Source: Bacilli bacterium
GTDB taxonomy: Bacteria > Bacillota_I > Bacilli_A > ML615J-28 > CAG-698
Direction: 5' to 3'
Assembly: GCA_028691715.1 (NCBI GenBank)
Contig: JAQUYR010000003.1
Location: 1 to 41,094 of the forward strand
Length of the DNA stretch: 41,094 bases
Part shown: positions 14,183 to 41,094 of the stretch, in pieces
How positions within the stretch are numbered: position 1 is the first letter of the stretch
How the letters are laid out: each line of letters starts with the position of its first letter
Notes under the pieces: model-generated
Database searches by the model: none
What the model saw: only the letters and a program-made list of their open reading frames with translations
Told to the model about the DNA's origin: nothing
Translations under genes and position numbers: made by a program

Positions 14183-14302
14183 TTTCTCAACTCCTCCTGA
14201 CATTTACTATTTAATTATACATTAAAATTCGGATAAATAAAATAAATATTTTATTTATTAAGGAAATTATGGTATAATATAATTACATTTTGGAGGTAAA
14301 TA

Positions 14303-19826: not shown

Positions 19827-19852
19827 ATAGACATCAGGTAATTCATCCTGAT

Positions 19853-19917: not shown

Positions 19918-19938
19918 TAAAGATATTCTTTTAATGAT

Positions 19939-19968
19939 CTTTGATAATATCAAGGCTTTTCTTTTTTT
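19939..19968 (+). terminator. Candidate riboswitch expression-platform terminator
   Basis: CTTTGAT-AAT-ATCAAGG (7 bp, AT-rich, one wobble), followed by CTTTTCTTTTTTT. A competing hairpin, AAAGAT(19919-19924)/ATCTTT(19937-19942), overlaps its 5' arm. Confidence 0.5.
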
Positions 19969-20003
19969 ATTGGTCTATTGCGAGATAAAAAAAGGAGAAA
20001 AAA

Positions 20004-21260: not shown

Positions 21261-21270
21261 TAAGATAATA

Positions 21271-21312
21271 TATAGGGGACCAGACTCGTAATGGGTCCCC
21301 TATATCTATTTA
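21271..21312 (+). terminator. Intra-operon hairpin (attenuator or partial terminator) between the binding-protein and ATPase genes
   Basis: 11-bp GC-containing stem TATAGGGGACC / GGTCCCCTATA with a 12-nt loop, followed by TCTATTTAAT. Confidence 0.55.
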
Positions 21313-21329
21313 ATATGAGGAAAAAATGA

Positions 21330-24006: not shown

Positions 24007-24007
24007 T

Positions 24008-24991
24008 ATGGATAATATTATTTCTTGGATTTGTTTATCTGGTGTTTTCTCAACAATTTGTATTTTTGCATCTTGTGGGGAAATATTAACTGAAAAATCA
24101 GGGCATCTAAATTTAGGTGTTCCAGGTATTATGTATTTGAGTGGATTCGTCAGTTATTTTGCGGTCTATAGTTATGAAAAATCATGCGAAGATCCTAACA
24201 AATTTTTAATAATAGTAATCGCTATTTCAGTGGCTTTGGTAGTTGGAGCCTTGCTTGGTGGACTATACAGTATTATGTGTGTAACATTCAAATGTAATCA
24301 GAATGTTACGGGACTTGTCATTACAAGTTTTGGTATTGGATTTGGAAAATTTTTATCTTCAATGGCAGGCCTAACAGATACAAAAGCTATAATAAGTGGA
24401 GGAGTTTTTATCGAAGGTATTCCCCTATTGAAAGATATTCCTTTTTTGGGAAAACTATTCTTTAATTTTGGTTTAATGACCTATATCGGCATTATTGTTG
24501 CTGTTCTAGTCTACTTGTTTCTAAAGAAAACAAGATGTGGGCTAAATTTAAAAGCTGTTGGTGAATCAGCTGCAGTTGCTGATGCGGCAGGAATAAATGT
24601 CAATAGATACAAGTACTTAGCAACAATTATTGGTTGTAGTTTCTGTGGTTTAGCTGGTATGGTATATGTTCTTCAATATGGTGGTGGCCTGTGGTCAACA
24701 AACAATAATATTGAAGCCATTGGCTGGTTAGCTATAGCTTTAGTTATTTTTGCTTCATGGAAAACAATAAGACTTCTATGGGCAGCATTATTATTCGGAT
24801 TATTGTTCTGGGCTTATAATTTCTTGCCTGTTATCTTACCGATAGCATCATTTTCTGGTTCTTCAGAAATAATCAAGATGTTGCCTTATGTTGTTACAAT
24901 TATTGTTTTGATCGCTAATAGCGTAAAGAAGAGTAAACTAAATCAACCGCCTTCGTCGCTTGGTATACCATATTACCGCGAAGAAAGATAA
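24008..24991 (+). CDS. ABC transporter permease (NupQ-like)
   Basis: Starts 1 nt after the previous stop. Polytopic membrane protein, paralogous in layout to the preceding permease. Confidence 0.85.
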   Translation: MDNIISWICLSGVFSTICIFASCGEILTEKSGHLNLGVPGIMYLSGFVSYFAVYSYEKSCEDPNKFLIIVIAISVALVVGALLGGLYSIMCVTFKCNQNVTGLVITSFGIGFGKFLSSMAGLTDTKAIISGGVFIEGIPLLKDIPFLGKLFFNFGLMTYIGIIVAVLVYLFLKKTRCGLNLKAVGESAAVADAAGINVNRYKYLATIIGCSFCGLAGMVYVLQYGGGLWSTNNNIEAIGWLAIALVIFASWKTIRLLWAALLFGLLFWAYNFLPVILPIASFSGSSEIIKMLPYVVTIIVLIANSVKKSKLNQPPSSLGIPYYREER

Positions 24992-27142: not shown

Positions 27143-27255
27143 AATCTCGCTTTAAGTACCTATATTCAATATCAGGCAACGAATCAGGTCAGGTCGTGAT
27201 TGAAGCAGCCTTAAGTTCAACTTGGTATGTGAGTATAGGTACTTAAGGTGAGATT
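27143..27255 (+). ncRNA. ffs: Small (4.5S-type) signal recognition particle RNA
   Basis: A long hairpin pairs AATCTCGCTTTAAGTACCTATA with TATAGGTACTTAAGGTGAGATT. The apical part carries the conserved domain IV motif CAGGTCAGGTC...GAAGCAGCC. It lies directly downstream of tadA, as in Bacillus. Confidence 0.82.
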
Positions 27256-27266
27256 TCATAGATTTA

Positions 27267-27299
27267 GAAAACTCTTATAAATTAAGAGTTTTTATTTTG
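27267..27299 (+). terminator. Terminator of ffs
   Basis: AAAACTCTTA-TAAA-TTAAGAGTTTT, followed by TATTTT. Confidence 0.7.
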
Positions 27300-27310
27300 G
27301 AGAAGAACAT

Positions 27311-28291
27311 ATGTTTAAAGTTGGAAATGTTGAAATAAATAATCAAATAGTTTTAGCCCCTCTTGCAGGGTATACCAATAAGGCATATCGCAAGATAATC
27401 AAGAAATTTGGGGTGGGACTTGTATTTACCGAGATGATAAGTGCCAAAGGCTTAATATACGATAATGATAAAACATGGGAGTTAACCGACATCGATAAAG
27501 ATGAACATCCAATTGCCGTTCAGTTATTTGGTGGGAATGCTACGGATTTGGTCAAAGCGGCAGTCATGATTGACCAGAGGAGTAAAGCAGATATCATCGA
27601 TATCAATATGGGCTGTCCGGTAAAAAAGGTGATAAAGGCTGATTCAGGAGCAAAGATGCTTCTAGATATCAACAAGGCATATGATATAGTTCATCAGGTC
27701 GTTTTAGCTGTTACAAAACCAGTAAGTGTTAAAATTAGAGCGGGTTGGGATCATAAAAGTATTAACTGTGTTGAATTTGCAAAAGCCATGGAAAAAGCTG
27801 GAGCTTCAATGATAACAATTCATGGAAGAACAAAAACCGACTTATATGGGGGAAAAGTAAATTTAGACTATATAAAAAAAGTTAAGGATAGTGTTAAAAT
27901 ACCAGTTATTGGTAATGGTGATATTAAAAATATTAATGATGCCCGGATAATGTTTGAGTACACTGGGGTTGATGCTGTAATGATTGGACGAGGAACATTT
28001 GGAAATCCTTGGTTGATGCGCGATTTAGTTGACTATTTCTCTGGCAGAACAACGGATGCTCCACCAACAAAATTGGAGAAAGTAGCGATGATTAAGGAGC
28101 ACTTTGAAGAGTTATTAAAGATAAAATCGGAAAAGATTGCTGTTTTAGAGATGAGAACATTAGCTGCCTGGTATGTTAAGGGATTTAGTTATGCTAAGGA
28201 GTTTAAAAGCAAATTACTGGGAATTAAAACAAAAGATGAAATGAATTTATTGATTGAAGAATTAGAGAGAAGCATAAACGAGGAAAAATAA
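27311..28291 (+). CDS. dusB: tRNA-dihydrouridine synthase
   Basis: Dus-family motifs: LAPLAGYTNKAYR, DINMGCPVKKV, HGRT, GNGDI and GRGTFGNPW. 326 aa. Confidence 0.9.
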   Translation: MFKVGNVEINNQIVLAPLAGYTNKAYRKIIKKFGVGLVFTEMISAKGLIYDNDKTWELTDIDKDEHPIAVQLFGGNATDLVKAAVMIDQRSKADIIDINMGCPVKKVIKADSGAKMLLDINKAYDIVHQVVLAVTKPVSVKIRAGWDHKSINCVEFAKAMEKAGASMITIHGRTKTDLYGGKVNLDYIKKVKDSVKIPVIGNGDIKNINDARIMFEYTGVDAVMIGRGTFGNPWLMRDLVDYFSGRTTDAPPTKLEKVAMIKEHFEELLKIKSEKIAVLEMRTLAAWYVKGFSYAKEFKSKLLGIKTKDEMNLLIEELERSINEEK

Positions 28292-30490
28292 ATGAGAACA
28301 AAATCAATGTCAGTTAAAGATAATGTATTATATATGGGAGAACATCGCCTACAGGATTTAGCAAAGGAATATGGAACTCCACTTTATGTTTATGATGAAA
28401 TTGGAATAAATGATAAGATAAGAAAATTTAAGGATAATTTTAACAGTGAAAAATTTAACTGTGAAGTTGTCTATGCTTCTAAAGCATTTATCGCTCCATA
28501 TCTTTGTAAGATTTTAGAAAAGAATGATTTAAGTATCGATTCAGTTAGCGAGGGAGATCTTTACTTGCTCAAAAAAAGTGGTTTTCCGATGAATAAAGTC
28601 GTAGCTCACGGGAATAACAAATTGATGAATGAACTGATTATGGCTCTTGATTATGGTGTTGAATACTTGGTTGTTGATAACCTAACAGAACTTTTACGCT
28701 TGGAGTATTTAGCAAGTCGCAAAAAGAAAAAACTAAAGACATTAATTAGGATTAATCCTGGCATTGAAGCTCATACTCATGCTTATATAGAGACATCACT
28801 TCTGAGTTCAAAATTTGGCGAGTCAATACATGCAACAGATATCTTGGAACAAATGGTTGAGGTATATCGAAATTCAGAGTATTTGACTTTAGAAGGATTC
28901 CATGCCCATATTGGTTCACAAATAAACAATCCCAATAGTTTTATCTCTGAGGTAAAAACGATGTGTCAGTTTATGAGAGATTTTTCTCAGAAGACAAAAT
29001 TTGAGTTTAAAACTTTGGATATTGGTGGAGGCTTTGCTATCAAGTATTTAGATGAAGATGTTGAAATTGATCTACCAACAATGCTTAATCTGATTGTAAA
29101 AGCCGTTGAAGAAGAAATAGAAGATACATCGCTAAAAATTGAAAAATTGATGATTGAACCAGGGAGATCACTGGTTGGCGATTCAGGAATAACTTTGTAT
29201 ACCTGTGGAAGCAAGAAAACAACCTTTAGTGGGAAAAAATACATCTTTATTGATGGAGGAATGGCAGATAATATCAGACCAGCCTTATATCAGGCAAAAT
29301 ATAGTGTTGATATTGCTAATCAGGTAAATACACCAGTTAAGGAAATGTATGATGTGGTTGGCAAGTGCTGTGAGAGTGGCGACATCATCGTGAAGGATGC
29401 TATGATTGGGGAAATTCATAAAGGCGATACGATGGTGGTTTATTCAACAGGTGCATACTGCTATTCGATGTCGATGAATTATAACAGTTTAGTCAGAGGG
29501 GCAGTTATCTTTGTCAATGGACAAAAAGTAACAACAGCAATCAGAAGACAGAGTTTTGAGCATTTATTTGACACATGTGTTTATGAGGAGAAGGAAATGA
29601 AAATATTTGATATACATAGTGATATGCTATACGATTTATATAAACAAAGTCTTATTGGAAATAACACAAGATTTTTAGATTTCCATGTTCCCCAGTTACA
29701 AAATAGCTGTATCAAGGGAGCAATTTGGACGATGTATTCACCAGATGATTTCAATTTACTAAAGGCTGTTAAAGTTGCTATGAGCAAAATAAACCTGAAA
29801 GACTTACCAGGCTTTCAGGTTATATTTGGTCTGGAGGGCTTACGAAATCTTGAGAAGGTTGAAGATATAAATAAGTTATATAAACTTGGTTTCAGACATG
29901 CTATGTTGACATGGAATGAAGCAAATAAGTATGCAACAGGAGTTGCTGGTGATGCCAATAGAGGATTAACTGATGAGGGTGAAAAACTGATAAAGAGAAT
30001 GGAAGAACTGGACATGATTATTGATCTAGCCCATTTAAATGAGAAGAGTTTTTATGGTGTTCTTAAAATCTCGAACAAAAATATTGTTTACTCTCATGGA
30101 TGTGTTAAAGATATATGCAATCATCGTCGTAATGTTACCGATGATCAAATGAAAGCCTTGAAGAAAGTGGATGGATTATTAGGATTAACCCTTGCTAAAA
30201 ACTTTGTCAGCTCTATTGAAGAGGAAAAGGATTTGGAACACTTCCTTGTTCATCTGGATTATGCTGTTGATATAATGGGTGTTGATAATGTTTGCTTCGG
30301 ATTTGACTTTATGGATTACCTATCAGAATTTCCAAATGATAATATAGTTGATGTCCCTAATGCTACAAAGGCATACAGGATAATTGATGGTATGAGAAAA
30401 AATGGATATTCTGAAGAAGAAATAAACAAGATTTGTTGGGGCAATTTTTATAATCGATTTAAAGACAAAATAATGTTAAAAGGAGAATGA
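28292..30490 (+). CDS. Fusion protein: diaminopimelate decarboxylase (LysA, aa 1 to ~430) joined to a peptidase M19 dipeptidase (aa ~436-732)
   Basis: The ATG abuts the dusB stop (TAAATG).
- LysA motifs: VVYASKAF (PLP Lys), HAHIGSQ, DIGGGF, EPGRSLVG, GKCCESGD and GAYCYSMSMNYNS.
- M19 motifs: IFDIHSD (HxD), GLEG, LTWNEANKY, IIDLAHLNEKS, YSHGC and GFDFMDY.
There is no stop codon between the halves. Confidence 0.85.
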   Translation: MRTKSMSVKDNVLYMGEHRLQDLAKEYGTPLYVYDEIGINDKIRKFKDNFNSEKFNCEVVYASKAFIAPYLCKILEKNDLSIDSVSEGDLYLLKKSGFPMNKVVAHGNNKLMNELIMALDYGVEYLVVDNLTELLRLEYLASRKKKKLKTLIRINPGIEAHTHAYIETSLLSSKFGESIHATDILEQMVEVYRNSEYLTLEGFHAHIGSQINNPNSFISEVKTMCQFMRDFSQKTKFEFKTLDIGGGFAIKYLDEDVEIDLPTMLNLIVKAVEEEIEDTSLKIEKLMIEPGRSLVGDSGITLYTCGSKKTTFSGKKYIFIDGGMADNIRPALYQAKYSVDIANQVNTPVKEMYDVVGKCCESGDIIVKDAMIGEIHKGDTMVVYSTGAYCYSMSMNYNSLVRGAVIFVNGQKVTTAIRRQSFEHLFDTCVYEEKEMKIFDIHSDMLYDLYKQSLIGNNTRFLDFHVPQLQNSCIKGAIWTMYSPDDFNLLKAVKVAMSKINLKDLPGFQVIFGLEGLRNLEKVEDINKLYKLGFRHAMLTWNEANKYATGVAGDANRGLTDEGEKLIKRMEELDMIIDLAHLNEKSFYGVLKISNKNIVYSHGCVKDICNHRRNVTDDQMKALKKVDGLLGLTLAKNFVSSIEEEKDLEHFLVHLDYAVDIMGVDNVCFGFDFMDYLSEFPNDNIVDVPNATKAYRIIDGMRKNGYSEEEINKICWGNFYNRFKDKIMLKGE

Positions 30491-30491
30491 A

Positions 30492-31580
30492 ATGAAGGAA
30501 ACTAGTATTGAAGGATTGAATCAGTTGATTCAAAAAGCTATTGAAGATGATGTTTTTCCCGGCGCTAATTATTGTTTAGTCACTGATAATGAGGATTATT
30601 ATGGAAGCTTTGGTAACAAGGCTAGTTACCCTCAAGTAGAAATAAATGATATCGATACTTTATACGATATGGCGTCTTGTAGCAAGGTTATAAGTACAAC
30701 AACTTCCATAATGATGTTATTGGAACAGGGAAAACTTCGTTTATATGATTCTGTTAAAAAATATGTTCCTCGTTTTCGCTATGAAAACATTACTATCTGG
30801 GATTTATTAACCCATTCATCGGGACTACCAGCTGATGTTATCCGATCATCGAAATTAAAAAATCGTGAAGAAGCTTTGGATAGAATTTTTGATTCGGTAT
30901 TAACATATGAAAAAAATTCTAAAGTTGTCTACTCTGATTTGGGATTCATTTTATTAGGATTTGTTGTAGAATCTATTAGTGGAATGACCTTGGACGAGTT
31001 TTCCAGAATCAATATTTTTGAACCACTGGATATGCTTTCAACAGGATATAATCCTGCTGATATTACCAGATGTGCTCCAACTGAAGAGAGAAAAGATGAG
31101 ATTTACAATGGTTTTCTCAGAGGAAAAGTTCATGATGAAAAAGCATTTATCTTAGGTGGAGTTGCTGGACATGCTGGATTGTTCTCCTGTGTTAAAGACT
31201 TGAATCATTTCATAAGAATGATTTTAAATGATGGTGTCTATGAAGGAAAACAAATATTGAGTAAAGCAACTATTGATTTGTTGTTTACTCCTCAAGTGGC
31301 AACAAAAAATGGTGTATCATTAGATGATGATACTAGAGGTTTGGGATGGATCGTTCGCGGAACATTTTGTTCAGCAGGAGATTTAGTCAGCAAAGAGACA
31401 ATTTTACACACAGGTTTTACGGGAACAAATGTTTTTATTGATCGCATTAATAGAGTTGGATTCACGATGTTGAGTAATCGTGTTCACCCAACAAGAGCAA
31501 ATGTTAAAATAATACCTTTTAGAGGAATGCTAGGAAATTATATAATATCTCATTTTGGAGGAAGAAACAGTGGAAATTAA
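30492..31580 (+). CDS. Beta-lactamase-fold serine hydrolase (class C / DD-peptidase / AmiE-like), cytoplasmic
   Basis: Starts 1 nt after the previous stop. Motifs SCSK (SxxK), YSD (YxN position) and HTGFTG (in place of KTG). No signal peptide or TM segment. 362 aa. Confidence 0.85.
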   Translation: MKETSIEGLNQLIQKAIEDDVFPGANYCLVTDNEDYYGSFGNKASYPQVEINDIDTLYDMASCSKVISTTTSIMMLLEQGKLRLYDSVKKYVPRFRYENITIWDLLTHSSGLPADVIRSSKLKNREEALDRIFDSVLTYEKNSKVVYSDLGFILLGFVVESISGMTLDEFSRINIFEPLDMLSTGYNPADITRCAPTEERKDEIYNGFLRGKVHDEKAFILGGVAGHAGLFSCVKDLNHFIRMILNDGVYEGKQILSKATIDLLFTPQVATKNGVSLDDDTRGLGWIVRGTFCSAGDLVSKETILHTGFTGTNVFIDRINRVGFTMLSNRVHPTRANVKIIPFRGMLGNYIISHFGGRNSGN

Positions 31581-32553
31581 GAAATTTAATGAAAAAATGA
31601 TTGGTGATGTTGTTAGATTATGGAATGAAAGTGTTGTTCCGTATTCGATATATGCTGAGTTTACAGAGGAGAGTTTCAAGGATAAATTCATAAATAATCC
31701 TTTTTATGATAATGATGGCAGTTGTGTTGTTGAAGAAGCGGGAAAAATTATTGCTTTTGGAAATGCAACATATAACAATAATGGTTTGGATGTTGAAAAA
31801 ACACCAGGGTATATCACTTGCATAGCGGTTGATAAAGCCTATTGGCGCCAGGGAATTGGAACAAAGATCCTTCACTATTTAGAAGAATTTTTAATGAGTA
31901 AAGGAAAAATTCTTGTTCGCAACTTTTTTGGAAATCCTATAAATCTTAAGTGGTATGTTCCTGGATATAGTAAACATGAACATGCTGGAGCTCCAGCGGT
32001 TGAAATCAATAGCCCGTATTATTTTTTATTGATGGCAAACGGTTATAACATCAATGGTCAACAGGATGCCTACCACATCGATTTAACAAAATATCAAATG
32101 CCTCAAAAGGTCATTGATAAAATCAACGAAAATGAAAAAGATGGTTACACCATTACAATATATGATGAAAAAATTCATTATGGCTTTGATGAATTATTTG
32201 ATGCTTTAGGCAGCGAAGGCTGGCGTCAGGCTATCAAGAATAACCTGGCAAAAGAAAAACCATTACCGATTCTTATTGTTCAAAAAGATGGGGAGATTCT
32301 TGGCTTCACCGGCCCGATAAATAATGAACCGAGTGGCAGAGCTTTTTTAGCTGGTGTTGCAATCCATCCAAAAGCTCAGGCTCGTGGTCTAGGAAAGACA
32401 ATGTTCTGTTCTTTATGTCAAAAATCAAAAGAAAATGGCTCAACATTTATGACTTTATTCACTGGTTCAGACAACAAGGCAAGAAATATATATCTTTACG
32501 CTGGACTTAGAGTGGTAAGATCTTTTGCGGTAATGAGAAAGGACCTTAAATAA
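31570..32553 (+). CDS. Double-GNAT N-acetyltransferase
   Basis: GTG at 31570 lies 8 nt after GGAGG; the alternatives are TTG at 31555 and ATG at 31597. There are two acetyl-CoA motifs, VDKAYWRQGIGTKIL and IHPKAQARGLGKTMF, so two GNAT folds sit in tandem. The gene overlaps the upstream gene's end. Confidence 0.8.
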   Translation: MEIKKFNEKMIGDVVRLWNESVVPYSIYAEFTEESFKDKFINNPFYDNDGSCVVEEAGKIIAFGNATYNNNGLDVEKTPGYITCIAVDKAYWRQGIGTKILHYLEEFLMSKGKILVRNFFGNPINLKWYVPGYSKHEHAGAPAVEINSPYYFLLMANGYNINGQQDAYHIDLTKYQMPQKVIDKINENEKDGYTITIYDEKIHYGFDELFDALGSEGWRQAIKNNLAKEKPLPILIVQKDGEILGFTGPINNEPSGRAFLAGVAIHPKAQARGLGKTMFCSLCQKSKENGSTFMTLFTGSDNKARNIYLYAGLRVVRSFAVMRKDLK

Positions 32554-32554
32554 A

Positions 32555-33244
32555 ATGGCAAAAACATTTATGGCAATTGGTGGTCATATAGGCGATATGG
32601 AATTGACAGCTGGATGTGTTTTAGCACATCAAGCGCTTCATGGTGATAAGATAATTACTGTGGCTTTGACAGCTGGAGAAAGAGGAAATCCTCAGGGAAT
32701 GAGTCAAGCTGAATATCGTGTCCAAAAGGTTAAAGAGGCTGAAACATTTGCTCAAATGTTAAATGGAGAGGCTATTGTTCTTGATTATCCCGATGGTGAA
32801 TTACCTAATAATGACACAGTTAGATGGCAAGTAGCAGCTTTAATCAGAAAATATCGTCCTAATGTTATTTTTACTCATTGGGGAAATAGTATGCATAAAG
32901 ACCACATCAATACTAATAGAATAGTTATTGATGCTGCCTTTTGGGCAGGAATTGATGTTGGTGACAAATTAGAAGGAACGCCTTGTTGGGCTCCGCTTTA
33001 TTTCTGTGAGAATTGGGAAGATCGCGAAGGATTTGATCCTTATATGATGGTTGACTGTAGCGATGGCTATGATTTATGGTGTCAAGCAATAAGTAAACAC
33101 TGGTTTATCATGAACAGCCCATCTTTTAGATATTATGATTACTATACTCATTTGACTTATGTTCGAGGAGCTTTAGGTAAATATCAACATGCTCAATGCT
33201 TTGATGTTAAAGGATATCAAAAATTTACAAAGGTGAGTTTCTAA
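32555..33244 (+). CDS. PIG-L / LmbE-family N-acetylglucosaminyl deacetylase-like protein
   Basis: Starts 1 nt after the previous stop. The N-terminal motif is AIGGHIGDMELTAG (family consensus AHPDDxE), followed by FTHWGNSMHKDH (the HxDH zinc motif). 229 aa. Confidence 0.78.
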   Translation: MAKTFMAIGGHIGDMELTAGCVLAHQALHGDKIITVALTAGERGNPQGMSQAEYRVQKVKEAETFAQMLNGEAIVLDYPDGELPNNDTVRWQVAALIRKYRPNVIFTHWGNSMHKDHINTNRIVIDAAFWAGIDVGDKLEGTPCWAPLYFCENWEDREGFDPYMMVDCSDGYDLWCQAISKHWFIMNSPSFRYYDYYTHLTYVRGALGKYQHAQCFDVKGYQKFTKVSF

Positions 33245-33245
33245 A

Positions 33246-34184
33246 ATGAAAAACAAACCCCAAAAACTTAGGATTAATGATACAATCGGATTAATATGCC
33301 CAGCATTTAAAAATCCTAATATGGATTCTGTCAATAGAGCTATTGAATATTTAAACAAAAAAGGTTACAAGGTGAAAGTTGGAGAATCTTGTACGGCTAG
33401 TGAAGGTTACTTAGCTGGCAGTGATAGCTTTCGGGCTCGTGATTTAGAAAAAATGTTTCTTGATGATGAGGTTAAAGCAATTGTGTGCATGCGTGGTGGT
33501 TATGGTGCTAGTCGCATGGTCGATTTAATAGACTATGAAATAATAAAAAACAACCCTAAAATCTTTTCAGGGTACAGTGATATAACGGTTTTATTAAATT
33601 CAATATATCGTAAATCCAATATGCCAACCCTTCATGGAATGGTCGGCTTCGCTTTTGGAAGTGATAAATTTGTTGATTTTAGCGAAAATGATTTTTGGAT
33701 GGCAACTACTGAGTTACAAAAAAATAGAATTTTAAGAACACCTGATGATAAAGCAAAGACCTTGGTTGAGGGCGTTGCTCAAGGTGAACTTGTCGGTGGA
33801 AATCTTAGTCTATTGGCAACGATGGTTGCTAGTGATTATGGAGCAGATTTTAAGGATAAAATAGTTTTTATCGAAGAAGTTGAAGAGGAACCATATAAAC
33901 TTGATCGCTATTTTTCAACACTTCGTCTTTCAGGGAAATTAAAGGAAGCAAAAGGGTTTATTTTTGGATATTTTACCGATTGCGAACCGAGTGAAAATCG
34001 TAAAGGAACTCAAAATTACTTAGATGTAATAAAAGATTATTTTCTGGAGTATAATAAGCCAACTATTTATGACTTTGCATCTGGTCATGATTATCCATTC
34101 ATTAATTTACCAATGGGAATAAAAGTAGAACTCGATGCTAATGACAAAACGATTAAGATCTTAGAAGAGTTTTATCAGGAATAA
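33246..34184 (+). CDS. ldcA: LD-carboxypeptidase (peptidase S66, LdcA/MccF family)
   Basis: Starts 1 nt after the previous stop. Motifs: IGLICPA, CMRGGYGASR, FSGYSDIT (nucleophile Ser), FIEEVEEEPYKLDR (Glu) and ASGHDYPFINLPMG (His). Confidence 0.9.
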   Translation: MKNKPQKLRINDTIGLICPAFKNPNMDSVNRAIEYLNKKGYKVKVGESCTASEGYLAGSDSFRARDLEKMFLDDEVKAIVCMRGGYGASRMVDLIDYEIIKNNPKIFSGYSDITVLLNSIYRKSNMPTLHGMVGFAFGSDKFVDFSENDFWMATTELQKNRILRTPDDKAKTLVEGVAQGELVGGNLSLLATMVASDYGADFKDKIVFIEEVEEEPYKLDRYFSTLRLSGKLKEAKGFIFGYFTDCEPSENRKGTQNYLDVIKDYFLEYNKPTIYDFASGHDYPFINLPMGIKVELDANDKTIKILEEFYQE

Positions 34185-34219
34185 TCTCGATAAAATATTA
34201 TAAGCAAAAGGAGAAGAAA

Positions 34220-35521
34220 ATGCAAAAAGCACTTAAAAGATATACCTTACCAGGATATGTGACGTATTATGGAACAACTAAGAAAGTTATGATACCTGTT
34301 GAATACCAGGAAAAAGAAGAAGAATTAAGAGGCGTGTGGTTCTCAACTGTAGCTAATATTGACATTCCTCAAATGACTGATGAAGAAAAGATTAAGGAAT
34401 ATTTATTAGGGGTAATCAAAAAAGTTAAAGAATATAATATGAATACGGTGGTCTTCCAAGTTAGACCGATGAATGATGCTTTTTATCAATCAAAGTTAAA
34501 TCCTTGGAGTCGTTATATAACTGGTGTAGAAGGTAAAAATCCTGGATTTGATGTCTTCGGTTTCTTTGTTGAGGAAGCAAAAAAAGAAGGAATTACTACT
34601 CATGCTTGGATTAATCCATATCGTGTTTCAACTCAAAAATTGAGCGATTTAAATCAAACAAAAGAAGAGTATCTGAAGACACTTGATAAGAACAATTTTG
34701 CTAGACGTCATCCTGAATGTGTCATTGAAACATCTTTAACAAAATTAATATTAGATCCTTCGAGCTCAAAAGTGAGAAAATTTGTTACGGATACAGTCAT
34801 TGAGATTGCTAAGAATTATGATATAAAGGCTGTTCACATCGATGATTATTTTTATCCTTATGAACCAATTGCTGATCCTCTAGAAGAGGAAAAATTTAAG
34901 AAGACTAAGTTTACAAAAATATCAGATTTCAGGCGAAATAATGTTGATAAACTGATTAAAATGATATCAGTTAATCTGAAAAAGCTTGACAAAAAGGTTG
35001 AATTTGGAATTAGCCCATTTGGAATATATCGTACAAATTCCAAACTTTTTGATGATCTGGATGATGAGGCGGCTTGGGACAAAGGATCAAACAACCATAA
35101 AGGATGTTTTAGCTGTTACAAAGGCTTATACGCTGATGTCTATTTATGGATGAAGAAAAAGTGGATTGACTACATTACTCCTCAAGATTATTTTGATTTT
35201 AGTAATACTAAAATTGATGAAAATAATCAAGAGGTATGCCGCGTGAGATATGCTGATCTAGCGAAATGGTGGAGCTGGGCAGCAAAGAAAACAGGAATTA
35301 AATTATATATGGGGCAAGGCATTTATCGCTATTCAGATGAAGGCGATTGGGCCAATCCAGAAGAAATAATTAATCAACTAAAGTTCAACACCTTATTTCC
35401 AAATATCATGGGAACAATGTTTTTCACATATAAAAATTTTGTAGAGGATAAATATGAATCATGTGTTAAAGGAAGAGAACTAATCAAACAACTTTGGACA
35501 AAACCAGTGAAGGAAATATAA
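34220..35521 (+). CDS. Glycoside-hydrolase-like family 10 (GHL10 / DUF187, YngK-like) TIM-barrel protein, no signal peptide
   Basis: AAAGGAGAAG SD. ELRGVWFSTVANIDIPQ and NTVVFQVRPMNDAFYQSKLNPWSRYITG match the GHL10 N-terminal signature, along with HAWINPYR and VHIDDYFYP. Confidence 0.8.
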   Translation: MQKALKRYTLPGYVTYYGTTKKVMIPVEYQEKEEELRGVWFSTVANIDIPQMTDEEKIKEYLLGVIKKVKEYNMNTVVFQVRPMNDAFYQSKLNPWSRYITGVEGKNPGFDVFGFFVEEAKKEGITTHAWINPYRVSTQKLSDLNQTKEEYLKTLDKNNFARRHPECVIETSLTKLILDPSSSKVRKFVTDTVIEIAKNYDIKAVHIDDYFYPYEPIADPLEEEKFKKTKFTKISDFRRNNVDKLIKMISVNLKKLDKKVEFGISPFGIYRTNSKLFDDLDDEAAWDKGSNNHKGCFSCYKGLYADVYLWMKKKWIDYITPQDYFDFSNTKIDENNQEVCRVRYADLAKWWSWAAKKTGIKLYMGQGIYRYSDEGDWANPEEIINQLKFNTLFPNIMGTMFFTYKNFVEDKYESCVKGRELIKQLWTKPVKEI

Positions 35522-35528
35522 AAATATA

Positions 35529-35558
35529 AGCAGCGTTGTTACTAAACGTTGCTTTTTA
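35529..35558 (+). terminator. Rho-independent terminator closing the dusB-to-GHL10 unit
   Basis: GCAGCGTT-GTTACTA-AACGTTGC (one wobble), followed by TTTTT. Confidence 0.65.
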
Positions 35559-35668
35559 TATAGGAAATAATCGATTAAAAATATGAAATGAATTGTATCA
35601 ACAAAGGCTAACATGTTGAAGAAAATAACCAGAAAAATAAAATGTCTTAATAAATTTAAAAAATCACC

Positions 35669-35697
35669 TTGAAAAAAAGAGTATTTTATAGTATAAT
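35669..35697 (+). promoter_or_regulatory. Sigma-A promoter for the GH20 / binding-protein / permease unit
   Basis: TTGAAA, 17 nt spacer, TATAAT. Confidence 0.55.
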
Positions 35698-35764
35698 TGT
35701 AGAAACTATTATATGGTTAAATTTTTCTGTTTTCGATTTAAAAAATAGCTATTAGGAGAAAACT

Positions 35765-37648
35765 ATGTATAAAATATACCCAAACGTAAAAAAATTCTCT
35801 ATGGAAATGGAGGAATTTGTTACAAAAGAAAAATTGACCGTTTTTTTTCGGGGAGAAGCGGAAAACGTTTTTACGAAAACCAATGATTTTATTGATGAAA
35901 AAGTTTCGGTGTTAGAGGAAGAGGCCGACATTATTTTTGTTAAGGATGAGAGTTTAGGGATTGAAGCCTATAAACTCGATGTTAAAAATAAAATCTATAT
36001 TTACTATAAAACTAGGAGTGGAGCTTTTTTTGCTCTACAGACTTTAAAACAGATTTTAATGCAATGTAGTGGAAGAATTAGATATCTACATATATTTGAT
36101 GAACCAGATATAAAGATCAGGGGATTAATGTTAGATATCAGCCGTGACAAAGTTCCAAAAAAAGAAACCGTGAAGTCAATTATTGATATGATGGCTGATT
36201 TGAAAATGAATCATCTGGAATTGTATGTTGAAGGATTCTCGTTTGGATATCAGAGTTTTAAACAATTTTTAGAAGAAGATGGATACATAAGCGTTGAAGA
36301 ATATCAGGAATTAGAGGATTATGCTAATTCAGTATGTATTGATTTTGTCCCTAACCAAAATGGATTTGGACATATGACTAAGTGGCTTGAAACTAAAGAG
36401 TATAAAGAGCTTGCTGAATGTCCAGAAGGAATCTTTCTTTGGGGAAGAAATCGCAAATCAAGCACACTAAATCCAATTGATCCAAAATCATTGAAATTGG
36501 TTACTAGGATGTATGATGATATGCTACCATATGCTAAATCTTCTTATTTTAACATGAATTTTGATGAACCTTTTGAATTAGGAAAAGGAAAATCAAAAGC
36601 TGAATGCGATGAAAAAGGTATTGGTAATGTCTATATCGATTTTGTTTTAAAAGCTTATGAGATTATTAAAAAATATCAAAAGACTCCTTTAATTTGGGGT
36701 GATGTTTTGATTAATCATCCTGAATTATTGCATAGATTACCTCAAGATATGATTTTCGTTGACTGGGGTTATGATGCTTTTCATCAATTTAATAAAAATT
36801 TGGAGATACTTAAAAAAGCAGGAGTTAAATTTATGGCAGCTCCAGGGACTACTAGCTGGGCTAGTTTTACAGGAAAGAATCGGGATTGGTCCGAAAACAT
36901 TACAAATGCTTGCCTAGCAGTTAAAGAGCATGGTGGTGAAGGAGTACTTCTAACCGATTGGGGAGATTTTGGACATCTTCAGTTTTTACCAATTACTTAT
37001 CCTGGTCTAGTTTTCATGGGATTATATTCTTGGAGAATCAAAGAGGGCACATATTTAAGTGTAAAAGATTATCTAAATAATTATATCTTTAAGGATGAAA
37101 CAGGCATTATCGGTGAATGTTTACTCGATTTGGGTAATTATTATCGCCTTGAAAATAGTTATGGTGGTAATGGTACGCCAACATTCTATAATTTTATGTG
37201 GGGTAGTATTGCTAATAGCGAAGAAAATAAAATTGAATATTATGTTTCTAAGGTAGAATCAAGTTTCTTAAGTTTTAAGAGGTTTAAGTTGTTTAGAAGA
37301 TTCTTTAGTTTTAAAATTGAAGAATTGAACATGACCGAAATGAAATGTGATGATGCTGATTTGGTTAAAGATGAATTATTACAATCCATTAGATTTGTAA
37401 AGATGATTCAAAAGGTTAATATTGGATTAAACGAAAGTATTGATTTGAATTTAAGAAAGAGATATTTAGAAGAAGTTGTGGCTTCAAGAGATATGTTTAT
37501 TAATGAGCAAAGTAGATTATGGCATGCTAGAAATAAATCAGGGGGATTTAAAGATAGTATATCCTATGTCATAGAATTTATCGATTTTGCTGAATATATG
37601 TTAGAATTTTTAAATAGAAGAGGTGAAGGTTATGAAATCCAAAATTAA
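35765..37648 (+). CDS. GH20-family beta-N-acetylhexosaminidase-like protein (non-canonical, HexD-like catalytic motifs), no signal peptide
   Basis: The N-terminal GH20b-like domain reads ...EAYKLDV...IYYKTRSGAFFALQTLKQIL. The barrel follows: IFDEPDIKIRGLMLDISRDKVP...MADLKMNHLELYVEG, with an Asp-Glu pair in NMNFDEPFELG. Confidence 0.68.
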   Translation: MYKIYPNVKKFSMEMEEFVTKEKLTVFFRGEAENVFTKTNDFIDEKVSVLEEEADIIFVKDESLGIEAYKLDVKNKIYIYYKTRSGAFFALQTLKQILMQCSGRIRYLHIFDEPDIKIRGLMLDISRDKVPKKETVKSIIDMMADLKMNHLELYVEGFSFGYQSFKQFLEEDGYISVEEYQELEDYANSVCIDFVPNQNGFGHMTKWLETKEYKELAECPEGIFLWGRNRKSSTLNPIDPKSLKLVTRMYDDMLPYAKSSYFNMNFDEPFELGKGKSKAECDEKGIGNVYIDFVLKAYEIIKKYQKTPLIWGDVLINHPELLHRLPQDMIFVDWGYDAFHQFNKNLEILKKAGVKFMAAPGTTSWASFTGKNRDWSENITNACLAVKEHGGEGVLLTDWGDFGHLQFLPITYPGLVFMGLYSWRIKEGTYLSVKDYLNNYIFKDETGIIGECLLDLGNYYRLENSYGGNGTPTFYNFMWGSIANSEENKIEYYVSKVESSFLSFKRFKLFRRFFSFKIEELNMTEMKCDDADLVKDELLQSIRFVKMIQKVNIGLNESIDLNLRKRYLEEVVASRDMFINEQSRLWHARNKSGGFKDSISYVIEFIDFAEYMLEFLNRRGEGYEIQN

Positions 37649-40600
37649 GTATAACCCACTAGTTGCTAAGAAGGCAATTCTTTGGCTATTATTAATAGCA
37701 ATTGTTGGTTTTTTAGGTGGTACGATAGTTCAAAGCTTTGAATCTGGACATAAATCGTCTTATTCAAAACTTCTTGACAATGAAATACCTGCTGGTAGTT
37801 ATGAAGATTATTTAAAATTACAAGCTGGAGTAAATCCAAATCGTCTAGATGAATTTGAGTTAGCTGATTTTTGGCAATACTTAAAATTTCCTGAAGGCGA
37901 GTCAATTTATGTTGATGGGAATACTGGCTTAGCTAGTGAAGATGCTGTTGGTTTTGCTGCTAATTATTTGATTGATGGCAAAAAAGGTTACTACACTAGT
38001 GAAGATGGTACAGTTACTTGGAATATTAATAACATTCCAAAAGCTGGTATGTATTATGTCAAGATAAACTATTACTTACCTGAAGGCGGCGGAAGCAATG
38101 CTGAAAGGTTAATTTCAATAAATGATGAGGTTTTATTTAATGATTTAAATAATGTTACCTTCTATCGTGTTTGGAAGGATAAAGAAGCTATTAAGCAAGA
38201 TATTACTGGTAATGATTTAAAGCCAACACAAGTGGAAGTTTATTCTGAAAGATCAACATACCTTCGTGATGAGACTGGTTATATATCAGAACCATTTATG
38301 ATTTATTTTGAAGAAGGTCAGAATACAATTTCTTTTACATCTCTTCGAGAAAATCTTATTATTTTTAGTTTTGAGATTGTTTCTGTATTTAGTACTTATA
38401 CATATGAAGAATATTTAGAAGCAAATAAAGATGCTAGGGTTACCAGTGGAACAATTGAGAAAATCGAAGCTGAAGCTGCTACTGAAAGATCTTCACCAAC
38501 TCTATATGCTACTAGCGATAGGACTAGTCCTTTGAATACTCCTTCTGATCCAGTTAAAACTAAATATAATGCAATTGGTGGATCAAAATGGTCGACACCA
38601 GGAGATTGGATTTCTTGGACGGTGACTGTCCCTGAAGCTGGTTTCTATAATATTTCTCTTCGTGCTAAACAAAACTTGTCAAGAGGTTTGTTTTCAACAA
38701 GAAAAGTATATGTTAATGGCGTTGTTCCATTTAAAGAAGCTAATAATGCTAGATTTTTCTATAGTAGTGATTGGGAGGTAATTACCATAGGTAGTGAAGA
38801 TGAAGCATATCTATTCTATCTTGAAGAAGGAGAGAATACGATTGCTTTAGAAGCAACCCTTGGTGATTATGGAGATCCTATTAGTCAGGTTCAACAAGTA
38901 ATAGATGATTTAAGTGATTTATATTTAAAGATAATTGCGATTACAACTGCTAGTCCCGATGAATATCAGGAGTATAATTTATATGGTGATAATGCCCGTA
39001 TTTCAACTGATGCTGATGGCAGGACTATGGAGGAAATATTTGCTGATAGTGCGGTTACTTTAAACCAAGTATCAGAATATATTACCAGTCTAACTGGAGA
39101 AAAGAGCAGTTTGAATAGCTCTTTGGATAAAATAGTTTTACAAATCGGTGGAGAAGTTACTAGAAATGGTAAGACCTCTGATTTAGGGGGCTTTGCTACA
39201 AAACCATGGAATGTTACAAAGGATTTAAAGGAGTTCAAAACAAATCTTTCGGCTCTAGGAACATGGATTTTGGATATCAAAGACCAATCATTAATAATTG
39301 AATGTCTATGGGTTCATTCACAAGATGTCGATTTACCAAAGGCAAATGCCAATTTCTTTACTCAGACATGGTTTAAAACTAGGGCCTTCTTCTTATCGTT
39401 CTTCTTTGATTATGAATCAATCGGAATAACTTCTACTGAAGGATTTGAAAAAGAAATCGAAGTTTGGTATTTAACAAGTGAATCTACTGGACGTGAGCAG
39501 GTTAATGCGGTAAAGAATTTGATTGATACAACATTTATTCCTGATACGGGAATAAATGTAATCTTAAAAATTCTGGCACCAGGTGTTTTATTACCAGCTA
39601 CTCTTGCAGGAACTGGTCCAGATGTTGCCATCAATGTTGCTGGAGGATTACCAGTAAATTATGCTTTGCGTGGAGCTATCTATGATGTAAGTCAACAAGA
39701 AGACTTCCACGAAGTAACAGGTATTTGCACAGCTGAAAATGCTGCTAAAGGTAATTGTACCCAAAACAATGGCAATTATACAGATACTGATTATGTAAAA
39801 TATGACTACCCTGAATATGCAAGGTTCCAATATAGTTCTATGGTTCCTTTCGAATTAGAGGGAAGTTACTATGCTCTTCCTAATACATCTTCGTTCTTAG
39901 TAATGTTCTATCGAACTGATATTTTTGAAGAAAACGGCTGGTCAGTTCCTAAAACTTGGGATGATGTTAAACTTTTAGTAACCGAATTACAAGTATCAAA
40001 TTTGGATTTCTATTTACCATTTGAAGATGCTGGATCAGTAATCTATGCTACGATGTTATATCAAATGGGTGGGCAATTCTATCGCAATGATGATAAAGAG
40101 TCTGATTTCGATTCCGAACTAGGAATGCAGGCCTTTGAAGATTGGTGCAGTTATTTTACTGATTATAGTTTCTTATTATCAGCAAACTTCACAAATAGAT
40201 TTAGAACTGGTGAAATGCCAATTGGTATTGCATCATATGAATTATTTAATACATTGACAGTTTTTGCTCCTGATATCATGGGTAAATGGACATTTGCTCC
40301 ACTACCAGGAACTTATCGTGAAGATGGAACTTATAATAACAGTGGTGTTGCTACAAGTACAGCCGTTGTTATTATGGAACAAGCCAGAGATAAGGATTCA
40401 TCTTGGGAATTTTTGAAATGGTGGACTTCTACAGAGACACAATATAGTTATGCTAGAGAATTAGAGTCAATTTTGGGAGCAGCTGCTCGTCATAATACTG
40501 CTAATATTGAAGCCTTTAAATTATTGCCTTGGTCTAAGTCTGAGAGAGAAATATTAGTATCACAATGGGAAATCACAGTAGGTCTTCCTGAAATTGCTGG

Positions 40601-40751
40601 TGGTTACTATGTTGGACGTAATCTAGAAAATGCTATTCGTGCGGTTATCAATGATGATACAAATCCACGAGAAACATTTAGTGATTATATTGTTCTAATC
40701 AATAGTGAAATCACAAGGAAACGTCAGGAATTTGGACTACCTGTTGATTAG
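37632..40751 (+). CDS. Membrane-anchored giant solute-binding protein: TM anchor, two CBM-like beta-sandwich repeats, linker, family-1 extracellular solute-binding domain
   Basis: ATG at 37632 overlaps the GH20 stop; the track's GTG at 37623 is less likely. TM helix AILWLLLIAIVGFLGGTIV. The internal repeat is WNINNIPKAGMYYVKINYY...FEEGQNTISF versus WISWTVTVPEAGFYNISLRA...LEEGENTIAL. The C-terminal ~450 aa look like a sugar-binding protein (WSVPKTWDDV, MPIGIASY, GKWTFAPLPG). Confidence 0.8.
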   Translation: MKSKIKYNPLVAKKAILWLLLIAIVGFLGGTIVQSFESGHKSSYSKLLDNEIPAGSYEDYLKLQAGVNPNRLDEFELADFWQYLKFPEGESIYVDGNTGLASEDAVGFAANYLIDGKKGYYTSEDGTVTWNINNIPKAGMYYVKINYYLPEGGGSNAERLISINDEVLFNDLNNVTFYRVWKDKEAIKQDITGNDLKPTQVEVYSERSTYLRDETGYISEPFMIYFEEGQNTISFTSLRENLIIFSFEIVSVFSTYTYEEYLEANKDARVTSGTIEKIEAEAATERSSPTLYATSDRTSPLNTPSDPVKTKYNAIGGSKWSTPGDWISWTVTVPEAGFYNISLRAKQNLSRGLFSTRKVYVNGVVPFKEANNARFFYSSDWEVITIGSEDEAYLFYLEEGENTIALEATLGDYGDPISQVQQVIDDLSDLYLKIIAITTASPDEYQEYNLYGDNARISTDADGRTMEEIFADSAVTLNQVSEYITSLTGEKSSLNSSLDKIVLQIGGEVTRNGKTSDLGGFATKPWNVTKDLKEFKTNLSALGTWILDIKDQSLIIECLWVHSQDVDLPKANANFFTQTWFKTRAFFLSFFFDYESIGITSTEGFEKEIEVWYLTSESTGREQVNAVKNLIDTTFIPDTGINVILKILAPGVLLPATLAGTGPDVAINVAGGLPVNYALRGAIYDVSQQEDFHEVTGICTAENAAKGNCTQNNGNYTDTDYVKYDYPEYARFQYSSMVPFELEGSYYALPNTSSFLVMFYRTDIFEENGWSVPKTWDDVKLLVTELQVSNLDFYLPFEDAGSVIYATMLYQMGGQFYRNDDKESDFDSELGMQAFEDWCSYFTDYSFLLSANFTNRFRTGEMPIGIASYELFNTLTVFAPDIMGKWTFAPLPGTYREDGTYNNSGVATSTAVVIMEQARDKDSSWEFLKWWTSTETQYSYARELESILGAAARHNTANIEAFKLLPWSKSEREILVSQWEITVGLPEIAGGYYVGRNLENAIRAVINDDTNPRETFSDYIVLINSEITRKRQEFGLPVD

Positions 40752-40765
40752 GATTGGAGAGTCAG

Positions 40766-41094
40766 ATGGAAAATAATATAAAACAAGAAAACAAACCAAC
40801 CTTTTTAAAGCGTTTCTCAAAGTGGAGAGAAGGAAGAAGAAAAAAAATCGACCAATGGAGTCGTAAGAAACCTTTCAGACGAAAGATGTATTTAAATAGA
40901 TCGCTATATCTAATGATGTTTCCATATCTTCTATTATTCACAACATTCACAGTAATTCCGGTTGTGATGAGTTTAGGATTGAGTTTCACAGACTTTAACC
41001 TTTTAGAATGGCCACCAGGATGGGTTGGTTGGGATAATTATCTTAACTTGTTCTTGGAAGACCCAATATTTGTAACAGCCTTAAAGAATACTTT
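40766..41094 (+). CDS. ABC sugar-transporter permease (MalF/LplB-like), 5' part only, running off the window
   Basis: This ORF is not in the track because no stop is reached. The ATG lies 5 nt after GGAGA. My translation is MENNIKQENKPTFLKRFSKWREGRRKKIDQWSRKKPFRRKMYLNRSLYLMMFPYLLLFTTFTVIPVVMSLGLSFTDFNLL.... The last part is the typical first TM helix and motif of CUT1 permeases. Confidence 0.75.
   Translation, partial: MENNIKQENKPTFLKRFSKWREGRRKKIDQWSRKKPFRRKMYLNRSLYLMMFPYLLLFTTFTVIPVVMSLGLSFTDFNLLEWPPGWVGWDNYLNLFLEDPIFVTALKNT

Follow-up and report, generated by a model that had tools for sequence, protein, structure and literature searches.

The 41,094-nt stretch of DNA analyzed here (the window; contig JAQUYR010000003.1 of assembly GCA_028691715.1) comes from an ML615J-28/CAG-698 bacterium, and its positions ~27153 to 41094 hold two adjacent, co-conserved operons that may together form a route for the salvage of peptidoglycan, ending in lysine. 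All genes and signals of this locus lie on the + strand. The first operon encodes the tRNA dihydrouridine synthase DusB (27311..28291; TIGR00737, 367 bits against a cut-off of 293), whose housekeeping gene comes first in the packed unit; a bifunctional LysA-M19 protein, in which diaminopimelate decarboxylase is joined to an M19 dipeptidase (28292..30490; TIGR01048 and Peptidase_M19); a beta-lactamase-fold serine hydrolase of the PBP4B type, Blac (30492..31580; PF00144); a tandem-GNAT acetyltransferase of 327 residues (31570..32553; two GNAT domains by Pfam); a PIG-L/LmbE-family zinc deacetylase (32555..33244; PF02585, E 9e-22); an S66 serine peptidase of the LD-carboxypeptidase/MccF family (33246..34184; S66 N- and C-terminal domains); and a GHL10 TIM-barrel enzyme of 433 residues (34220..35521; GHL10 of Pfam and homology to Cwp19). 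The second encodes a GH20-family beta-N-acetylhexosaminidase-like enzyme (35765..37648; GH20 and GH20b domains), a membrane-anchored binding protein of 1039 residues (37632..40751; SBP_bac_1/8, a transmembrane helix, and structure models), and the 5′ part of a first ATP-binding cassette (ABC) permease, recognized by its translation and transmembrane segments and cut by the window end (40766..41094).

The tight packing and the junctions that an initial annotation had read from this DNA were all reproduced by a map of open reading frames (ORFs) and by reading the sequence directly. The stop and start codons are joined as TAAATG between dus and lysA-M19 (28289-28294), as TGA-A-ATG between lysA-M19 and the serine hydrolase gene (30488-30494), and as TAA-A-ATG at both 32551-32557 and 33242-33248; the GHL10 ATG at 34220 follows a 35-nt spacer that carries the ribosome-binding site AAAGGAGAAG. 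The GNAT gene starts with GTG at 31570, behind the ribosome-binding site GGAGGAAG, and its first 11 nt lie inside the preceding gene, which runs to 31580; in a public protein collection, the gene caller chose the same start (327 residues). Each product family named at the outset was matched in Pfam and NCBIfam profile searches, and a hydropathy scan agreed that the enzymes are not exported, finding no N-terminal hydrophobic or transmembrane segment in the seven, GH20 among them. What had been described as a six-gene unit does hold those six genes but begins one gene earlier, at dus (27311), and thus has seven.

Upstream of dus lies the gene for the signal recognition particle RNA (ffs, 27153..27248; Rfam RF00169, 50.5 bits against a gathering score of 40), and after it comes an AT-rich hairpin, a weak one (both within 27153-27310); together these probably mark the 5′ limit of the transcription unit. 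Only 13 nt separate the end of the hairpin from the start of dus, leaving no space for a separate promoter, so that the dus-to-GHL10 unit may be transcribed by readthrough from ffs. At its other end the unit has an intrinsic terminator (35528..35562), with a 10-bp stem at 35528-35554 and then a T-run. A promoter, TTGAAA-17-TATAAT (35669-35697; 11 of 12 consensus positions), precedes the GH20 gene. Both signals had been placed here from the start, and both are kept in five relatives, where a hairpin and T-run stand at the same site with a stem that differs in sequence from that of the window and can still pair. Just 3′ of the -10 box, a stretch of ~30 nt, TGTAGAAACTATTATATGGTTAA (35698-35730, the promoter and stretch together spanning 35669..35730), is near-invariant in six genomes, and the spacer flanking it diverges; it may be an operator or a leader element. 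No regulator gene was found in the locus. In the same operon, the binding protein most likely begins at ATG 37632, which its ribosome-binding site favors over GTG 37623.

The lysine end of the proposed route would be the work of the LysA-M19 fusion. Its LysA half (residues ~1-430) scores 408.1 bits with TIGR01048, against an NCBIfam equivalog cut-off of 297.9, and aligns over residues 9-427 with positions 5-414 of the 417 in the model. YASKA, GGGF, EPGR, CESGD, and RPALY, which we take to be LysA active-site motifs, are present together with GAY, and all are invariant or nearly so in 28 orthologs. This half would be expected to decarboxylate meso-diaminopimelate (mDAP) to L-lysine. The M19 half (residues ~436-732) matches Peptidase_M19 at E 2e-63 (214.8 bits against a Pfam cut-off of 26). 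Conserved motifs of GliJ, the M19 structure that matches best, line up with its DIHSD, GLEG, DLAH, YSHG, and FGFDF; human renal dipeptidase is also among the matches. Its putative binuclear-zinc ligands (HxD, a bridging Glu, two His, and an Asp) are invariant in the 28 orthologs. M19 enzymes reportedly prefer L-Xaa-D-Xaa dipeptides, and the M19 half would accordingly be predicted to hydrolyze L-D dipeptides such as mDAP-D-Ala.

Fusion of these two enzymes is rare. Among 1.84 billion representative proteins (clusters at 50% identity), a single fused representative was found, 99% identical to the query, and the other top matches were stand-alone LysA or M19 proteins. Of the 30 loci in which LysA and M19 lie side by side, 25 have the fusion and five have separate neighboring genes (for example, L027 and L030). 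Judged from these sequences, the fusion is an invention of one clade.

Three further enzymes can be assigned, by homology, to the glycan and to its link with the stem peptide. The GHL10 protein (180 bits against a Pfam cut-off of 27.9) aligns over ~350 residues with the catalytic domain of Clostridioides difficile Cwp19 (PDB 5oq2; E 2.6e-69). Residues W36, Q77, W127, R132, D195, D196, Y197, S250, Q295, Y297, and G328 of Cwp19 are identical in the pairwise alignment, F367 is kept, and S368 is replaced by Thr; the DDY motif, the W and R of HAWxNPYR, and the Q, S, QxY, and G motifs are unchanged or almost unchanged across 34 GHL10 orthologs. Cwp19 is a demonstrated peptidoglycan lytic transglycosylase that releases 1,6-anhydro-muropeptides from peptidoglycan, and we propose that the GHL10 enzyme cleaves the beta-1,4 bond that links N-acetylmuramic acid (MurNAc) to N-acetylglucosamine (GlcNAc). 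The two share catalytic domain and active-site residues but differ in setting: Cwp19 is an S-layer autolysin that is secreted and carries a signal peptide plus three CWB2 domains, whereas the protein here is a bare, cytoplasmic catalytic domain of 433 residues, with no signal peptide, transmembrane segment, or CWB2 repeats, and so would have to act on imported fragments rather than on sacculi. Our literature search found GHL10 described only for Cwp19 and a Deinococcus enzyme. The locus gives a functional context to cytoplasmic GHL10 enzymes.

The GH20 protein matches the catalytic domain of its family at E 2.7e-17 (63.6 bits against 22.3) and GH20b at E 4e-11 (44.1 bits against 26.1). All of its PDB relatives belong to GH20, as hexosaminidases or lacto-N-biosidases, and its NFDEP motif, whose adjacent D and E are presumably the catalytic pair, is invariant in 31 orthologs. 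Removal of non-reducing GlcNAc is its proposed role. The serine hydrolase (PF00144, E 2e-55) has PBP4B as its best NCBIfam family (E 1.4e-54; 185.6 bits, under the equivalog cut-off of 385) and is 33% identical to Escherichia coli YfeW (PBP4B) over its full length (E 1e-56); its SxxK, YSD, and HTG motifs are invariant in 37 sequences. YfeW is exported, but the homolog here has no signal peptide and is cytoplasmic. In E. coli, yfeW is the last gene of the murQ-murP operon. This linkage to murQ and murP is not repeated here: neither the window nor the ORFs examined around relatives' loci showed an SIS-domain etherase or a phosphotransferase system (PTS) gene. We propose that the serine hydrolase is a MurNAc-L-Ala amidase, with a DD-peptidase or D-aminopeptidase as the alternative.

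The remaining three enzymes are less constant. The tandem GNAT, with two domains in 327 residues, has as its sole PDB sequence matches the entries for Clostridium acetobutylicum GlmA (5KF1 and others), itself a tandem GNAT of 328 residues; the match is weak (E ~3e-6) and limited to residues 11-118, the N-terminal domain. All 122 of the 122 homologs found come from this clade. Its proposed role is a GlmA-like N-acetylation of glucosamine (GlcN) residues. For the PIG-L protein, whose PDB relatives are TT1542, BshB1, and diacetylchitobiose deacetylase and whose zinc motifs GGHxGD and HKDH are invariant across orthologs, we propose de-N-acetylation of GlcNAc or of a fragment containing GlcNAc or MurNAc. 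A role of PIG-L, GNAT, and M19 in a bacillithiol, mycothiol, or mercapturate-like pathway was considered and set aside because a glycosyltransferase and a cysteine ligase are both missing and because the three genes keep company with GHL10, GH20, and Blac.

The S66 protein matches the N- and C-terminal domains of its family (Pfam E 4e-40 and 1e-32), and the Ser of GxSD, the Glu of ExxxxxPY, and the His of GH, presumably the LdcA-type catalytic triad, are invariant in 27 sequences. Muramoyltetrapeptide carboxypeptidase, NF008424, is its sole NCBIfam match (143.9 bits, under the cut-off of 378). The initial call of an LD-carboxypeptidase therefore holds for the S66 fold and its conserved Ser, Glu, and His, but the protein is nearer to MccF-like proteins than to LdcA: its best PDB matches are to a Bacillus anthracis MccF-like protein (1e-37), ahead of LdcA (2.5e-26 to 9e-22). 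Trimming of the stem peptide is its proposed role.

A hydropathy scan gave the binding protein one N-terminal transmembrane helix. In a full-length model (predicted local distance difference test score, pLDDT, 84), this helix is followed by two beta-sandwiches, a helical linker, and an oligosaccharide-type binding domain. Foldseek matched the last of these to oligosaccharide-binding proteins (target TM-score 0.72-0.82), and the full-length search matched that part only. The carbohydrate-binding modules (CBMs) with which the protein had been credited are weak by sequence (CBM_35, E 0.0015, under the Pfam cut-off) and are backed by predicted structure: in a separate AlphaFold model of residues 85-415 (pLDDT 87), both sandwiches resemble CBM35/CBM6 modules (Foldseek probability 1.0, target TM-score 0.6-0.7). 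Sequence and models alike identify the binding protein and permeases as a predicted sugar-type (CUT1-like) ABC importer.

In relatives 84-86% identical to the window, the operon continues with a permease, an NHL-repeat protein, a Yip1 membrane protein, a DUF5696 protein, and two more permeases. L044 and L045, two such loci, carry this cassette after the first permease, and the window is therefore cut inside the cassette. The permeases of relatives' cassettes are of the BPD_transp_1 family; in L045, the NHL protein carries both a signal peptide and an anchor at its C terminus, and DUF5696 is anchored N-terminally. No ABC_tran ATPase gene was found in the cassette of L045 or L048. Sugar ABC systems often share an ATPase encoded elsewhere.

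Homologs of the binding protein, 35-41% identical over nearly the full length, occur in Paenibacillus, Bacillaceae, Lachnospiraceae, Oscillospiraceae, and others, and ~70 of 79 such loci hold a cassette of eight or nine genes in the order optional small binding protein, CBM-bearing binding protein of ~1000 residues, two permeases, NHL, 5-transmembrane Yip1, DUF5696, two permeases (for example, L045:13136-21802 and L048:8353-21143, by the gene content of the fetched loci). Most are from walled Firmicutes, and one is from a spirochaete metagenome-assembled genome (MAG). DUF5696 had no sequence homolog in the PDB and no mention in our literature search. The cassette looks like an uncharacterized multicomponent machine for glycan uptake, and the locus described here points to its wide occurrence in Firmicutes.

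The initial annotation had held that its reading would fall if the gene set were not conserved in relatives; it clearly is. A scan of one genome per species yielded 43 loci encoding LysA-M19 relatives, with synteny determined by tblastn, and presence was counted in the 25 species-level genomes that have LysA and M19 and extend for at least 11.5 kb downstream. The order is Dus, LysA-M19, Blac, (GNAT), (PIG-L), (S66), GHL10, GH20, binding protein, permease, with variable members in parentheses. Blac is present in 25/25 genomes, and GHL10, GH20, and the binding protein are each present in 24/25; Dus precedes LysA/M19 in 22. The tandem GNAT is found in 20, S66 in 18, and PIG-L in 10 of the 25. The order is kept in ~30 species at 44-90% amino acid identity, with catalytic motifs invariant or nearly so. 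A look-up of the window's own GNAT gave only two short, near-identical contigs, and one of its binding protein and GH20 gave none. Two other public assemblies have near-identical copies of the locus, L124 (ENA ERZ18242344) and L125 (Logan SRR22315505). In the low-coverage L124, GHL10 and the binding protein are fragmented, probably by assembly errors.

Taken together, homology and gene order suggest that the locus imports fragments of peptidoglycan and dismantles them in the cytoplasm, with murein as the substrate and lysine as an end product; we would give this reading a probability of roughly 0.6. From the same two sources we infer every substrate and reaction, the order of the steps, the L-D dipeptide of the M19 half, and any channeling between its domains. 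We imagine that the binding protein would capture glycan-peptide fragments by means of its two CBM35-like modules and its oligosaccharide domain and pass them to the sugar-type importer. Inside the cell, GH20 would take off non-reducing GlcNAc, the Cwp19-like GHL10 would cut MurNAc-GlcNAc bonds, and the PBP4B-like hydrolase would release the stem peptide from MurNAc. Where present, the GlmA-like GNAT could re-acetylate GlcN of de-N-acetylated murein and so enable the glycosidases to act, and PIG-L could deacetylate an amino sugar for catabolism. The stem peptide might be trimmed by S66, where present, and by peptidases encoded outside the locus. A tetrapeptide cut at the gamma-D-Glu-mDAP bond gives L-Ala-D-Glu and mDAP-D-Ala, both L-D dipeptides, the class that M19 enzymes reportedly prefer; the M19 half would then hydrolyze mDAP-D-Ala, and possibly L-Ala-D-Glu, and the LysA to which it is fused would decarboxylate the freed mDAP to L-lysine.

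The assignment to murein salvage made in the initial annotation is borne out in part, by the homologies to Cwp19, PBP4B, GlmA, and LysA and by conservation of the set, but less so by S66, a generic transporter, and missing steps. Several points weigh against a murein pathway and should be set out together. By Pfam, the window has no MurQ, MurK, AnmK, NagA, NagB, or Mpl-type ligase, and no enzyme of the locus could be assigned to the gamma-D-Glu-mDAP bond or to the catabolism of MurNAc, so that the route as drawn is incomplete. S66, as noted above, is closer to MccF-like proteins, and S66, PIG-L, and GNAT are dispensable in many relatives (S66 is absent from 7 of 25). Adjacency of dus and M19 also occurs without the rest of the set (relatives L033 and L034) and, judged from these loci, is older than the joining of LysA. 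The host order is predicted to have an mDAP-type wall of its own, and LysA may therefore be simply the ordinary last step of lysine synthesis; if the host has a complete diaminopimelate pathway, LysA would need no salvage explanation. An M55 (DppA-type) D-aminopeptidase is encoded 13 kb upstream and unlinked to the locus (13385-14203, - strand; Pfam E 6.6e-83), and it may take part in the pathway.

Some of these points would fit a locus of unrelated neighbors, in which the dus-lysA-M19 genes and those that follow serve housekeeping metabolism of amino acids and peptides, with an ordinary LysA in a host that needs mDAP for its own wall, and the GH20, binding protein, and ABC genes serve another GlcNAc-containing glycan, such as chitooligosaccharides or a host or fungal glycan. 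Murein would then have been read into family names too broad to bear it. A terminator and a separate promoter divide the two operons, and unrelated genes stand between them in at least 12 relatives: in 12, the epoxyqueuosine reductase gene queH follows GHL10 (for example, L012:7574-8173), so that the enzyme operon is bracketed by two tRNA modification genes, dus and queH, and in L029 methionine synthesis genes take that place. In walled Firmicutes the uptake cassette stands beside genes for mannanase (GH26-CBM35), GH43, or GH38 enzymes and assorted regulators; paired with such varied carbohydrate-active enzymes, it signals glycan rather than murein, and the substrate has to be read from its neighbors. 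Import of glycan-peptides, as first annotated, is therefore supported as far as a sugar-type importer with CBM modules goes, but the cassette is generic and not specific to murein. The weak curated-family matches of the binding protein are likewise to binders of chitobiose/GlcNAc and other carbohydrates, diacetylchitobiose deacetylases are among the PIG-L relatives, and GlmA also acetylates chitosan oligomers. Nevertheless, we consider two unrelated units unlikely. They are adjacent in 24 of 25 genomes, down to ~45% identity; the Cwp19-type GHL10 lies in the first and its glycosidase partner GH20 in the second; more distant lineages (the MAGs L053, L062, L073, and L102) have M19, PIG-L, and Blac intermingled in a single block with GHL10, GH20, and the binding protein; and chitin leaves a PBP4B-type hydrolase, S66, and the M19-LysA fusion unexplained.

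Another GlcNAc polymer to be weighed is partly de-N-acetylated poly-beta-1,6-GlcNAc (PNAG), on which GH20 would act like dispersin B and GHL10 like the C-terminal domain of PgaB, with GNAT and PIG-L tuning acetylation. GHL10 is a family of more than one function: a Deinococcus member is reported to be active on starch, and the nearest structural relative of Cwp19 is the PNAG-processing PgaB, two further points that count against murein. Dispersin B, a GH20 enzyme, served as a mechanistic comparison for Cwp19, and a pair of enzymes for re-acetylation and deacetylation would suit a partly deacetylated GlcNAc polymer. However, the homology of GHL10 is directly to Cwp19, whose activity was demonstrated on peptidoglycan, and PNAG would account for the sugar enzymes only, not for the PBP4B-type hydrolase, S66, M19-LysA, or an Amidase_2 protein found in Izemoplasmatales (see below). 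We therefore regard a PNAG substrate as very improbable.

If the substrate is murein, its source has to be considered in light of the host. A relative whose proteins are 82-86% identical to those of the window (L001) comes from a MAG listed in the taxonomy table of PMC10868615 as ML615J-28 / CAG-698 / genus JAAYBG01. According to that study, ML615J-28 is predicted to synthesize mDAP-type peptidoglycan with precursor steps missing, so that muropeptides would need to be scavenged, and most CAG-698 species are predicted to have a thin wall. The genes mraY and murG are present in 75% of the genomes of a "bioreactor group" that is equated with ML615 (PMC7301438). With this placement, the idea of a wall-less host, whose LysA would thus depend on foreign murein, was dropped. 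A tblastn search with the proteins of the E. coli dcw cluster (FtsI, MurC-MurG, MraY, FtsW, DdlB, FtsA, and FtsZ) gave no match in the flanks of the clade's loci, which cover only ~10 kb on each side and are uninformative on this point.

These predictions of an mDAP-type wall are what one would expect if the pathway served only the turnover of the cell's own thin wall, with lysine a minor overflow of recovered mDAP, and the enzymes are all cytoplasmic, as in the routes of E. coli and C. acetobutylicum. Yet the locus has no re-use enzyme of the Mpl, MurU, or AmgK type, and its end steps, by a dipeptidase and a decarboxylase, are degradative. Two CBM-like modules and two large surface proteins look built for scavenging a polymer, and wall-less Acholeplasma laidlawii and Izemoplasmatales keep GHL10 and Blac beside the cassette, the latter with a surface Amidase_2 protein as well. 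Recycling of the host's wall alone thus seems rather unlikely to us; the murein may stem from neighbors or dead cells, or from the thin wall of the host itself.

The partial sets in wall-less relatives bear most directly on this question. Ahead of the A. laidlawii cassette lie genes for a 1355-residue protein that carries GHL10 twice and for a homolog of Blac. In strain 8195 (L051:127-4194), the double-GHL10 protein has no signal peptide and a weak chitobiase C-terminal-like match, and as the product of a cultured wall-less organism it offers a convenient experimental entry point. In two Izemoplasmatales MAGs, the genes ahead of the cassette are for GHL10, Blac, and a 1093-residue lipoprotein with Big_2 and Amidase_2 (N-acetylmuramoyl-L-alanine amidase) domains. 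The MAGs L053, L062, L073, and L102 have M19, and some of them PIG-L and Blac, in one block with two or three GHL10 genes, GH20, and the binding protein; in L053 and L062, one of the GHL10 proteins is secreted. Haploplasma modicum retains only M19, PIG-L, and GNAT. The presence of GHL10 and Blac beside the importer in wall-less lineages means that enzymes of a peptidoglycan type travel with it where recycling of the cell's own murein is impossible. One can envision that wall-reduced or wall-less Bacilli, ML615J-28 and in part Acholeplasma and Izemoplasmatales, feed on the peptidoglycan of other bacteria by means of the importer (with its surface proteins and two pairs of permeases), the exo-lytic trio, and M19-LysA, which would turn mDAP-D-Ala directly into lysine; we put this forward tentatively, as possible rather than probable.

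Among known systems, the murQ-murR-murP-amiE-nagZ-namZ operon of Bacillus subtilis is one to which the three invariant accessory genes can be mapped. NagZ, AmiE, and NamZ are jointly required there for digestion of peptidoglycan, and GH20, Blac, and GHL10 correspond to this trio of GlcNAc glycosidase, PF00144 amidase, and MurNAc glycosidase. AmiE, the MurNAc-L-Ala amidase of the murQ operon, is a PF00144 protein, as is the serine hydrolase here; the relation is one of shared Pfam family, taken from the documented family of AmiE. The differences are several: GH20 stands in for the GH3 enzyme NagZ and GHL10 for the GH171 enzyme NamZ, the enzymes are cytoplasmic instead of secreted, an ABC importer with a giant CBM-bearing binding protein takes the place of the MurP PTS, MurQ and MurR are not in the locus, and a peptide branch (S66 and M19-LysA) is added. 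A second B. subtilis system, ykfABCD, has the S66 homolog YkfA working with enzymes for L-Ala-D-Glu and gamma-D-Glu-diamino-acid peptides. Neither a YkfB-type epimerase nor a YkfC NlpC/P60 endopeptidase is encoded here; because M19 can split L-D dipeptides directly, an epimerase would be unnecessary.

Recycling in C. acetobutylicum resembles the proposed route in its cytoplasmic cleavage of muropeptides and in GlmA, a 328-residue tandem-GNAT N-acetyltransferase of glucosamine and glucosaminides; similarity to GlmA is weak, as described above, and MurK and MurQ were not found in the locus. E. coli likewise breaks down imported muropeptides in the cytoplasm, uses an S66-family peptidase, and has a PBP4B homolog tied to MurNAc catabolism, and mDAP released in its recycling can reportedly feed LysA. 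In contrast, AmpG permease, AmpD (Amidase_2), the GH3 enzyme NagZ, MpaA, and Mpl are all missing from the locus, and whereas E. coli mainly re-uses the tripeptide, the route here would end in a dipeptidase fused to LysA. We found no locus of this kind in our literature search, and it is plausible that the one here represents known chemistry carried out by new enzyme families, a new fusion, and a new importer in a new group of hosts.

Seen this way, the gene set assigns other enzyme families to the same peptidoglycan bonds that are cut in E. coli and B. subtilis, and the fusion adds a step that would form lysine. ML615J-28 is an uncultured order between walled Firmicutes and mycoplasmas. The genome surveys that predict its need for muropeptides name no genes for uptake or processing, and the locus is a testable candidate for this predicted dependence. 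Should the route operate as drawn, foreign murein would supply both mDAP and lysine to wall-reduced or wall-less Bacilli. The partial sets in Acholeplasma and Izemoplasmatales raise the possibility that wall-less bacteria live in part on the walls of other cells, a point of relevance to how dead bacterial biomass is turned over in digesters and guts.

Elsewhere in the window, positions 4481-9088 encode a 1535-residue protein with several PAS domains, one EAL domain, and two GGDEF domains, an elaborate apparatus of cyclic di-GMP signaling for a small-genome relative of the mycoplasmas. Genes for a PnrA/Bmp-type nucleoside ABC transporter, with binding protein, ATPase, and two permeases, have a purine riboswitch (Rfam, 51.5 bits) upstream (19835-24991). 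Genes for thymidine kinase and a phosphoribosyltransferase are found near this transporter, and the whole fits a lifestyle dependent on salvage.

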